A stretch of DNA of 64,000 nucleotides. Source: Planctomycetota bacterium. GTDB taxonomy: Bacteria > Planctomycetota > Phycisphaerae > Phycisphaerales > SM1A02. How positions within the stretch are numbered: the first letter of the stretch is position 1; each line of letters starts with the position of its first letter. Below the pieces are notes generated by a model. That model made no database searches. It saw only the letters and a list, made by a program, of their open reading frames with translations, and was not told where the DNA came from. The stretch lies in assembly GCA_016873255.1 (NCBI GenBank), contig VGXR01000009.1, forward strand, positions 610-64,609. The letters run 5' to 3'. Of this stretch, positions 13,872 through 15,977 are shown in pieces. The translations under genes were made by a program, and so were the position numbers.

Positions 13872-15977
13872 ATGCCCGTCGCGTCAGACGCCGCCCGCAT
13901 CGCCGAGCTCCGCGAGCTGCTGCACCGCGCCAACCGCGCGTACTACGTCGAGGCGCAGCCCTTCATGCCGGACACGGAGTTCGACCGGCTGCTGGCCGAG
14001 CTCGGCACGCTCGAGGCGCGGCACCCGGAGCTTGCCGACCCCAACAGCCCCACCCAGCGCGTGGGCGGCGAGGCGTCGAAGGGGTTCACGCAGGTGACGC
14101 ACGGCGTCCCGATGATGAGCGTGGACAACACGTACTCGTACGACGACCTGCGCGCCTGGTGGGAGCGCTGCGAGAAGTCGCTCGGGCGGCCGTTCGCGGC
14201 GGTCGCCGACCCGAAGGTCGATGGCGTGGCCATCAGCATCCGCTACGAGAAGGGGCAGCTCGTGCAGGCCGCCACGCGCGGCGACGGCTCCGTGGGCGAC
14301 GACGTGACCCGCAACGTGCGCGCGATCGACGCGGTGCCGCTCGTGCTCGCGGCGGGCGACGGCGCGAGGGTCCCGGCCGTGCTCGAGGTGCGCGGCGAGA
14401 TCTTCATGCCGAACGCGAGCTTCGAGCGCATCAACGACGAGCGCCGCCGCGCGGGCGAGCCCGAGTTCATGAACGCCCGCAATTCCACCGCGGGCACGCT
14501 CAAGAGCCTCGATCCTGCGGTCGTGCGTTCGCGCAGGCTCAGCTTCGTGGCGCACGGCGTCGGCCACGTGGAGGACGTGTCGCTGCGCGGGCGCGCCGTG
14601 GCCACGTACCACGAGTTCCTGCAGGCGCTGCGCGCGCTCGGCGTCCCCGTGTCGGGCACCGAGGTGCGCTGCGAGTCCGCGGACGAGTGCGTTGCCGCGA
14701 TCGAGCGGTTCGGTGCCCGCCGCGCGGAGCTGCCCTTCGCGGTCGACGGCATGGTGGTGAAGGTCGATGCGTTCGCCGACCAGCGCGAGCTCGGGGTCAC
14801 CGCGAAGGCCCCGCGCTGGGCGGTCGCGTTCAAGTACCCGGCCGAGCGCAAGCCGACGGTGCTGCGGTCCATCGCGTGGCAGGTGGGCAAGGGCGGCACG
14901 CTCACGCCGCGCGCCACCATGGACCCGGTGGTGATCGCGGGCACCAAGGTGCAGCACGCCACGCTGCACAACATCGACGAGATCCACCGCAAGGACATCC
15001 GGGTCGGCGACACCGTGATCGTGGAGAAGGCCGGCGAGATCATCCCGCAGGTGGTCGAGGTGGACCTTGCGCGGCGGCCCGCGGGGTCGCATGCGGTGGA
15101 GCCGCCGTCCGCGTGCCCGAGCTGCGGCGAGGCCGTGACCAAGGAGGGCCCGAAGCTCTTCTGCACCAATGCCGCGTGCCCCGAGCAGTTCCGCGAGCGG
15201 CTGAAGTGGTTCGTCGGCCGCAACCAGATGGACATCGAGGGCCTCGGCGAGAGGATCGTCGACCAGCTGGTGGAGAGCGGCATGGTGAGGGGCTTCGCCG
15301 ACGTGTTCCGCCTCGATGCGGCCGCCGTCGCGGAGCTGACGAGCGAGAGCGTGACCAAGGCCGGCAAGGCCGTGCAGCGCAAGATCGGCGAGAAGACCGC
15401 CGCGTCGATCTGCGCAAGCGCCGAGGAGGCGAAGGGCAGGGGGCTTGCGCGCCTGCTTGAGTCGCTCGGCATCCGGCACATGGGGACGGCGTGCGCGAAG
15501 GCGTTCGCGCGCGCGTACCCGGACCTCGACGCAATGCTCGCGGCCGGCCCCGAGGACTTCAAGGAGATCCCCGACGTCGGCGAGGTGACCGCGCCGAGCA
15601 TCCACGCGGACCTGCACTCCGCCGCGATGCAGCGCACGTTCCGCGAACTGCGCGCCGCGGGCGTGAGCGTCGCCAGCCCGATCCACGTGGCGGCGGGTGC
15701 GGGGGGCGCGGCGGCGGGCGAATCGCCGTTCGCGGGCAAGACGGTGGTGCTGACCGGCGAGCTGGAGCTCATGGATCGCCGCGCGGCGACGGAGCTGCTT
15801 GAGTCGCTCGGAGCAAAGGTATCGGGCAGCGTCAGCAAGAAGACGCACCTGGTGATCGCCGGCCCCGGCGCAGGCAGCAAGCTCGCGAAGGCGAGGGAGC
15901 TCGGCATCGAGGTGTGGGACGAGGCGCGGTTCGCCGCCGCCACGAAATCCGTTCCCGGTCAGCTTGGAACCAATTGA
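13872..15977 (+). CDS. ligA: NAD-dependent DNA ligase
   Basis: 701-aa ORF. Adenylation motif KVDGVA, Zn-finger CPSCGEAV...CTNAACPEQ, HhH and BRCT regions. The last 10 codons and the TGA lie inside repeat copy 2R. Confidence 0.95.

Follow-up and report, generated by a model that had tools for sequence, protein, structure and literature searches.

An inverted repeat at stop codons and the C-terminal tails of LigA and other proteins in a Phycisphaerales genome

The ligA gene considered here lies at positions 13872-15977 of the plus strand of a window of 64,000 nt (the whole stretch of DNA analysed, with a GC content of 72%) from a member of the Phycisphaerales, and its 3' end falls within an inverted-repeat element that separates it from a convergent downstream gene. 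The open reading frame (ORF) encodes an NAD-dependent DNA ligase of 701 aa in which Pfam recognizes adenylation, OB, HhH, and BRCT domains, the last of these ending at residue 685, and it contains no in-frame stop before the one encoded by the repeat. The final 33 bases, positions 15945-15977, read AAATCCGTTCCCGGTCAGCTTGGAACCAATTGA, a 33-mer found once in the window, with 0 occurrences expected. They are in frame with the end of the ORF and constitute the outer arm of the element, in agreement with the initial annotation of this DNA, which had attributed the C-terminal codons and the stop of ligA to a repeat unit.

Searches of the window with a 30-nt arm consensus, allowing up to 6 mismatches, returned 10 arms, plus one additional arm with an indel, and a pattern scan of metagenomes led to about 60 arm-bearing contigs with a GC content of 70-74%, from which 35 pairs, spread over different gene contexts, and 41 solo arms were collected. 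Beyond the window, the arm-bearing loci sampled amount to only about 0.9 Mb; the public loci and contigs compared are designated by L-numbers, and the arm tallies refer to non-redundant arms (n = 97 for the flanking base, 93 for the outcome for the host ORF, and 94 for the stop offset). These copies have in common a unit of about 46 nt, the arm, whose outer edge is sharp and starts with AAATCC; the arm consensus from the outer to the inner end is AAATCCGYTCCTGGTTAGTTTGGCACCAATTGTTTTCTCCAGAGAA. The commonest form of the family is a 99-100-nt pair of inverted 46-nt arms, and the consensus element folds as a single hairpin (-81.5 kcal/mol, z -17.8). The two arms of a pair differ consistently at two positions, AAATCCGTTCC versus AAATTCGCTCC, and this fixed difference argues for descent from a master copy. 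An ORF entering the arm in frame 0 reads AAA-TCC-GTT-CCT-GGT-TAG, that is, K-S-V-P-G-stop, or K-F-A-P-G from the second arm type, so that the two arm types explain the two versions of the tail.

The LigA of the window has a longer tail, since its arm carries GGTCAG where the family has GGTTAG, and the protein consequently reads on to the second in-frame stop of the arm, AAT TGA. In L189, whose LigA is 98% identical, the orthologous element is close to the consensus, GGTTAG is present, and LigA ends directly after KSVPG. The sequences thus show the 10-residue tail to be the five-residue KSVPG tail as extended by the loss of its stop (TAG to CAG). The stop of the convergent gene, at the opposite edge of the element, is of a junction type, T/AG (the slash marks the arm edge), eroded from T/AA; the same place in L189 reads GAC GCC T/AA ATTCGC. 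The hairpin of this element is eroded as well (RNA fold -37.4 kcal/mol, z -2.4). Compared with their counterparts in L189 (5953-6050 and 1870-1977), which match the family consensus, the window element at ligA and the one next to a hotdog-like gene described below are 84% and 90% identical, respectively, whereas the flanks are 95-99% identical. The window copies therefore differ 5-8 times more than their flanks, with 18 AT>GC and 3 GC>AT changes, and would be old copies that erode faster than their surroundings, mostly in the AT>GC direction. This divergence represents either erosion in one lineage or homogenization in the other.

The ligA neighbourhood shows synteny with freshwater Phycisphaerales metagenome-assembled genomes (Mendota, Baikal, and Tanganyika). 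LigA identity is 85% in the best genomic relative, and identical LigA genes are present on five public contigs; contigs from Lake Tanganyika carry an identical LigA. None of the 80 related genomic loci containing ligA relatives has an arm. The arm-free LigA proteins end in ...WDEDRFLAALGVSPS, ...FLAAIGAG, ...FLRELGEG, ...FAAALSRA, ...FMAAIKDL, or ...FLAALGVSPS, the arm-free hotdog-like proteins in ...KLERRKK or ...ERRRKR, and the arm-free AroK proteins in seven different ways, including ...IERALDA, ...ELERVA, and ...LDAATA. LigA homologs with 98, 90, and 87% identity end in ...A[TL]KSVPG, the one with 86% identity ends in ...KSVPGNGAPD, and those with 88% and 85% identity are without the tail, while the hotdog-like relatives with the repeat end in ...KSVPG, ...KSAPG, or ...KSAAG. 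The contigs of the tail-bearing relatives have the element at the same ligA and hotdog-like sites, and also at the site between rnc and aroK where the contig reaches it.

Since the repeat-free orthologs end differently, and the tail is present in those where the repeat occupies the same site, the tails of these three unrelated proteins, together with their stops, are lineage-specific, repeat-encoded, and a replacement of the ancestral ends. The initial annotation had anticipated both the shared tail and the replacement of the original stop or last residues; it had also named the observation that would speak against them, the same C-terminal residues encoded by unrelated DNA in repeat-free orthologs, and this was looked for in the alignments and not found. 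What was lost, as judged from the alignments, is the stop and roughly the last 1-5 residues. For ligA, the gain of the element dates to the common ancestor of those lineages whose LigA is 86% or more identical, and it came at the cost of such an end from an ancestral ...FLAALG-x. In relatives that lack the repeat, ligA and its convergent neighbour share about 14 nt at their ends (TCAGTCSNNCGTGA); where present, the element is placed between GCGCT(C/G) and AGTC and, by inspection, splits the TGA of the neighbour, which reappears as T/AA or TG/A. The hotdog-like gene and aroK were hit independently, in the same way as ligA. Even though spurious long ORFs are common in high-GC genomes, the idea that the shared tails are a coincidence or an artefact of ORF calling has practically nothing left to recommend it and can be considered refuted: all three genes have conserved syntenic orthologs in related Phycisphaerales, LigA and AroK have clear Pfam domains (the third gene has none above threshold), the identical LigA is called on the five public contigs, no in-frame stop precedes the one used, and the statistics leave no ambiguity about the repeat family.

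The edge of the arm is sharply defined and falls on the host gene's stop codon. Of the 97 arms, 47 are preceded by T, 44 by G, 6 by C, and none by A. When T or TG precedes the arm, its initial AAA completes a stop, T/AA or TG/A, with no residues added. Counted over 93 arms, the stop shares the first two bases of the arm in 38 (35 T/AA plus 3 in eroded arms) and only the first base (TG/A) in 8, the ORF continues in frame to K-[SFI]-[VA]-P-G-TAG in 17, and it reads to KSxPGxxGTN-TGA in 2, with the host stop located 1-6 nt upstream of most of the remaining arms. A separate tally of offsets places a host stop within -6 to +30 nt of the edge of 74 of 94 arms, including 38 with T/AA, 8 with TG/A, and 16 with an in-frame K-[SFI]-[VA]-P-G-TAG. 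As a null model, the consensus was virtually inserted at random into the same loci: junction stops arose in 3.6% of the insertions versus 49% observed, and tails longer than 11 aa in 33% versus 2% observed (both of these being antisense artefacts), whereas the five-residue tail was as frequent in the simulation (18%) as among the real arms (18%). The share of TAA among stops is 2.7% away from arms and 45% at them. Whenever a copy is translated, it forms the very C-terminus of the protein and terminates at a stop belonging to the element, 15 or 30 nt away from the edge. The association between arms and stop codons is therefore far beyond chance, and the docking is unusually precise for such repeats.

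These figures also bear on whether K-[SF]-[VA]-P-G could have been selected as a signal at the C-terminus, for instance as a degron, sorting tag, or context for termination efficiency. The tail is kept in LigA and hotdog-like orthologs across 86-98% identity and recurs on about 18% of the arm-adjacent genes, but this share of frame-0 entries is the random expectation, and around half of the arms share only the stop codon with the gene. Furthermore, the arm DNA is equally conserved where it is untranslated, its conservation covers synonymous positions and extends 30 nt beyond the stop, and the variants of the tail (KSVPG, KFAPG, KSAPG, and KIAPG, plus EIRSW and its stop in another frame) track those of the arm. 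The LigA of the window has, moreover, lost the stop and gained five more residues. A selected signal is thus very improbable.

The remaining copies of the window follow the same pattern (Table 1). The hotdog-like ORF (11955-12575, minus strand) ends in ...KLERRKSVPG, and its element (fold -41.3 kcal/mol) is located between this gene and the start of the next gene on the same strand (11857). The initial annotation was right about the end of this protein, whereas the hotdog-fold label is backed by sub-threshold matches only (DUF4442, E = 0.011; 4HBT, E = 0.022; PDB 1sh8, E = 0.01). The site is filled in L113, L162, L164, L187, L188, and L189, and empty in L013, with a gap of 8 nt. In this repeat-free locus the stop and the next start are only a few nt apart, so the insertion may have replaced translational coupling. 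With the arm terminus CCAGGAGCGAATTT, the gene after the hotdog-like one has an AGGAG about 14 nt upstream of its start codon (window 11943-11972 and 11855-11865; L113 2123-2165).

The aroK ORF (20633-21184, minus strand) encodes a shikimate kinase (PF01202) ending in ...LERLLKFAPG, and the element between it and rnc retains a more stable fold (-56.3 kcal/mol, z -4.7). On sequence and translation, the KSVPG end of the hotdog-like protein and the KFAPG end of AroK both lie in repeat copies, and both genes use as their stop the TAG of GGTTAG within the arm, as initially described; GGTTAG, however, is not a variant of GGTTCG, as had been supposed, but the majority form (73 of 97 arms, versus 22 for GGTTCG). 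On the rnc side, two extra 13-nt arm termini, AAGTCCGCTCCGG at 20527-20539 and AAATCCGCTCCGG at 20541-20553, precede the arm. The terminus therefore occurs three times in tandem 3' of rnc (window 20526-20566), and the program TRF reports a period of 14 with 2.6 copies at 20530-20565. This triple terminus may be the footprint of repeated insertion or excision, or of slippage.

Regarding the solo arms, phoU ends with TGA in six arm-free orthologs versus T/AA in the window, and in L187 an arm-free TGA end was read by eye. No long ORF ends at the arm next to the third tRNA gene, which makes it one of the few arms without a tie to a stop codon. At the long form near the end of the window, the stop of an MBL-rhodanese gene lies 3 nt before the left arm, and a minus-strand ORF entering from the window end stops with T/AG on the right arm (63831-63833). 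In total, eight genes of the window have a stop within or shared by an arm (the hotdog-like gene, ligA and its convergent neighbour, rnc, aroK, phoU, the epimerase gene, and the ORF at 63831), and that of a ninth lies 3 nt before an arm. The KxxPG tails of the three genes are, because of this, the frame-0 minority of a general pattern. A -PG end occurs in only 3 of the window's 357 ORFs with 100 or more codons, and the hotdog-like gene and aroK account for two of these.

Table 1. Copies of the repeat in the window and the gene ends associated with them
Feature	Position	Strand	Remarks
Arms in the window, 11 in total			Three pairs of about 100 nt, one 465-nt long form, three solo arms
Element at the hotdog-like gene, 108 nt	11865-11972		Arms 11865-11894 and 11943-11972
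Hotdog-like tail, K-S-V-P-G and TAG	11955-11972	-	Arm with GGTTAG
Element at ligA, 98 nt	15945-16042		Between convergent ligA and downstream minus-strand gene
Arms of the ligA element	15945-15974; 16013-16042		Left arm, 6 mismatches to the consensus; right arm, 5 mismatches
Repeat-encoded LigA tail, 10 residues and TGA	15945-15977	+	From sequence and translation
TAG stop of the convergent downstream gene	16041-16043	-	Overlaps the last 2 nt of the right arm
rnc stop and extra arm termini	20526-20554	+	TAA at 20526-20528, formed at the edge of two extra tandem 13-nt arm termini
Element between rnc and aroK, 96 nt	20555-20650		Between convergent rnc and aroK; left arm with a 1-nt indel; right arm 20621-20650
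AroK tail, K-F-A-P-G and TAG	20633-20650	-	Arm type with terminus AAATTCGCTCC
Solo arm at phoU	21434-21482		First two bases complete the phoU TAA, 21481-21483 (minus strand)
Solo arm	30556-30585		TAA (30555-30557) of an NAD-dependent epimerase/dehydratase gene, completed by the first two bases of the arm
Solo arm	53731-53780		140 nt downstream of a tRNA gene (the third) and a terminator-like hairpin
Long form, 465 nt	63368-63832		50-nt arms, 92% complementary, around a structured interior

The family includes length variants of 99, 108, 178, 253, and 460-700 nt with common arms. The long forms of 250-700 nt have a structured interior in common, with a core of about 165 nt (about 63479-63646 in the window) in at least 15 loci, where the interior is 89-96% identical (L090, L094, L104, L107, L116, L145, L146, L150, L154, L156, and L176 among them). 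This interior contains a long hairpin of its own, GGTGGCCTCA...TGAGGCCACC around GCGTGCAAC, followed by tandem CCACCGCCGGTCGCCGAGGCGTCCA motifs, and could represent a cargo non-coding RNA or a second, nested palindrome. An interpretation of the 465-nt form as two independent solo arms was rejected, given that the interior is itself repeated in at least 15 loci; in L089 and L151, the apparent long elements were accepted as two solo arms flanking what, by eye only, resembles a small RidA-like gene. Rfam has no family that matches any copy or the interior of the long form. A putative sigma-54 promoter within the arm (TGGCACC-N-TTGA) was discarded by eye, as the -12 GC is missing, and other isolated TCCGYYCCYGG matches in distant loci look like chance. 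Public contigs often end within about 100-450 nt of an arm (arm start 30-426 nt from the end of the available sequence in L084, L101, L106, L118, L120, L140, and L157), and L189 diverges from the window about 60 nt past the element (beyond about 6110); the repeat appears to break or chimerize short-read assemblies.

Elsewhere in the window, Rfam identifies a cobalamin riboswitch at 50656-50851 (minus strand, 42.8 bits) and tRNA genes at 37847-37919 (minus), 39660-39732 (minus), and 53520-53591 (plus). At 59493-59585, directly before the next gene, a gene's final 22 nt, TGA included (GAGCGGATGGGCGTGCGCGCCT-GA), are repeated 4.2 times in tandem with 95% identity. At 36763-36821, between two apparently convergent ORF ends, the 20-nt unit TTCAGGGCTCATCCGCGGCT forms three perfect tandem copies and appears, by eye, to take in the minus-strand ORF's 3' end together with its stop codon.

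[quoted passage not shown] That the repeat is or was mobile is suggested by its many genomic contexts, the master-copy-like differences between arms, the cargo-bearing long forms, and the solo arms. It would have spread by transposition or a comparable copying process favouring stop codons or gene 3' ends, and it would be tolerated, perhaps used, as a 3' hairpin, either a terminator or a stabilizer of the mRNA end, the peptide tails being by-products rather than functional motifs. No canonical terminators were found in the window between 11 and 22.6 kb, and a terminator consensus scan flagged no copy of the element.

Several observations weigh against this explanation. Mobility would be deduced from the multi-locus distribution only. 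The 29 non-redundant pairs have no 3-5-nt direct repeats at any tested register that could represent a target-site duplication. Matches of 2 nt between their flanks (7 of 29 as TA) occur at the rate predicted from independent flank frequencies, and a TA or TNA duplication of the IS630- or IS5-like type was rejected, as T or G occurs independently in the two flanks and TA/TA appears at the expected frequency. Strains at least 97% identical show no difference between filled and empty sites, all their shared sites being filled, and no transposase or autonomous copy with the same termini was seen in the window or in the approximately 0.9 Mb of arm-bearing loci, although this is a weak test. The hairpin is followed only by UUU, and as the KS[VA]PG tail has been retained while LigA diverged by more than 10%, a selected role keeps some plausibility. 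Finally, the elements at orthologous sites have genome-specific inner arms (GGTTAAGTATGCACC in L187, GGTTAAATTGGC in L190, and GGTAATGGTGCCC in L188; positions 12083-12164, 7980-8087, and 16685-16793 of L187, 12084-12166 of L188, and 3975-4006 of L190) and only the outer 14 nt or so, AAATCCGTNCCNGG, in common, so that a single ancient insertion followed by simple decay would be insufficient, and gene conversion or repeated re-insertion would be needed. The aroK tail of L187 comes from another frame of a TGGTAA variant (...EIRSW and stop). In L001, the relative with 85% LigA identity and one of the 80 related genomic loci, positions 8015-8060 contain a perfect 28-nt palindrome made of arm termini only, AAGTCCGTCCCTGGCTAACCGGGGACGGACGT, composed of AAGTCCGTCCCTGG CTAA CCGGGGACGGACGT, where rnc ends in KSVPG, aroK in TSVPG, and the two stops overlap; this palindrome represents either an element that lost its centre or an ancestral form of minimal size.

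Part of this evidence fits the view of the hairpin as mainly a module selected by the host, a bidirectional terminator or protector of mRNA 3' ends, instead of a selfish mobile element. The contact with the stop codon would then be functional in itself, for instance by coupling ribosome release to the folding of the lower stem, and recombination would have spread and homogenized the copies. Even in genomes with as little as 86% LigA identity, orthologous gene ends retain elements, whose genome-specific inner arms suggest concerted evolution. Only the outer 14 nt are conserved across sub-families, which is approximately the stretch that a terminating ribosome would cover. In addition, the AAA...TTT ends resemble those of a bidirectional terminator, canonical terminators were not found nearby, and neither target-site duplication, transposase, nor strain-level polymorphism was found. 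However, erosion of the window copies is 5-8 times faster than that of the flanking DNA and their hairpins are weak (z -1.6 to -2.4), indicating that they are not strongly constrained here; the two arm types have fixed mismatches and not optimized pairing; solo arms and a long form bearing a 165-nt cargo are typical of transposon families; and the stem is followed by UUU only. We consider such a host module unlikely.

Tentatively, the docking itself could be the core of the mechanism, in a mobile hairpin whose integration or conversion is aimed at the first base of the host stop codon; we regard this as a possibility, albeit a rather doubtful one. The AAA and TTT termini would rebuild the stop on both sides (T/AA), and the internal TAG would cover the third frame. 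Thus, the palindrome could invade closely spaced or overlapping pairs of convergent genes while neither shortening nor lengthening them, and genome-specific variants would afterwards renew the copies at fixed sites, in the manner of within-genome replicators of the REPIN type. If true, target specificity would be set by translation stops, which is undescribed for a bacterial repeat.

Among the systems with which this repeat family can be compared, Rickettsia palindromic elements are palindromic repeats of about 100-150 nt that are translated within unrelated host proteins. The initial annotation had drawn this parallel, which is valid in that a palindromic repeat is translated in unrelated proteins, and fails for the internal, stop-free position: Rickettsia elements are in frame inside ORFs and add an internal peptide without a stop, whereas the translated copies of the present family are all C-terminal, at the extreme 3' end, where they bring or complete the stop. 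Mycobacterial interspersed repetitive units (MIRU) are also short and intergenic, and their ends overlap with the stop of the gene upstream. They are direct tandem units in operons, with small ORFs that couple stop and start codons, and do not form hairpin pairs.

Closer relatives in architecture are REPs (repetitive extragenic palindromes) and the related REPIN and TIR repeats, which have been reported in Planctomycetes and whose survey also mentions the Rickettsia elements (Di Nocera et al. 2013, PMC3733652; REPIN concept, Bertels & Rainey 2011, as cited in PMC3733652). As in those repeats, inverted doublets of about 100 nt forming a single hairpin coexist with singlets, there is no target-site duplication, the copies are extragenic, located after genes and mostly between convergent or same-direction ORFs, and they behave as genome-specific populations (PMC3733652). 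REP termini are also known to donate TAG stops (PMC3733652). Whereas REPs are imperfect palindromes of 20-40 nt with GTAG or CGTC as a tag at one end, neither tag occurs in the arm consensus (AAATCCGYTCCTGGTTAGTTTGGCACCAATTG...), and the arm, at 46 nt, does not form a short palindrome and contains no stable internal one. No gene for RAYT, the IS200/IS605-like Y1 transposase that mobilizes REPs, or for TIRYT was found beside an arm in the approximately 0.9 Mb sampled, and a tblastn search of these loci with an unverified RAYT probe gave no credible match, a weak test given the small sample. Stop sharing is, in addition, far more frequent here than in REPs and REPINs (49% exact, about 80% within 6 nt), with three docking modes, T/AA, TG/A, and the internal TAG. 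With respect to MITEs, the family has terminal inverted repeats of 46 nt in a short, non-coding element with many copies and contexts, and lacks the target-site duplication in the 29 non-redundant pairs.

Two documented cases involve MITE-like repeats at the ends of conserved genes. In Erwinia (E.) carotovora, an ERIC/RU-1 sequence is fused to the 3' end of the amidase gene ECA3499 with elimination of the normal stop, encodes a C-terminal peptide past the conserved domain, and has acquired a mutation that sets the new stop (Delihas 2007, PMC2759123). Just as in ligA, this is a MITE-like intergenic repeat at the 3' end of a conserved enzyme gene, yet the ERIC tails are of about 35 aa and sporadic (PMC2759123), versus 5 aa here (10 after the stop loss), with the element's own stop 15 nt from the edge and a family-wide association with stop codons. 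In Coxiella burnetii, QMITE1 and QMITE2 overlap the C-terminal 1-50 bp of ubiB, mutT, recN, ruvB, and other functional genes, and the last 33 residues of enhC come from QMITE2 in one strain, while an indel shifts the stop in another (PMC5896051). These elements have direct repeats and MITE-type terminal inverted repeats and no reported preference for docking on stop codons (PMC5896051), and both their host and their sequence are unrelated to those of the family described here. Repeat ends that donate stops or C-terminal residues are, therefore, already documented in REPs, ERIC, and Coxiella MITEs. Literature searches, one of them on the repeats of Planctomycetes, returned no description of this arm family, and it is apparently a new, undescribed family belonging to a known class, that of hairpin repeats located at the 3' ends of genes.

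These findings have several implications. For the annotation of genomes of this clade, TAA stops and -K[SF][VA]PG C-termini should be read as signatures of the repeat and not as protein function, and as regards their assembly, the repeat appears to fragment metagenomes, with many contigs ending at arms. From an evolutionary perspective, the ligA locus illustrates the dated, stepwise rewriting of a conserved enzyme's C-terminus, from overlapping convergent genes to an insertion giving the KSVPG end and then to a stop loss giving the 10-residue tail. In Planctomycetes, a phylum where hairpin repeats have been little studied, the combination of tight stop docking and genome-specific refreshing raises questions of target choice and concerted evolution for the biology of mobile elements.

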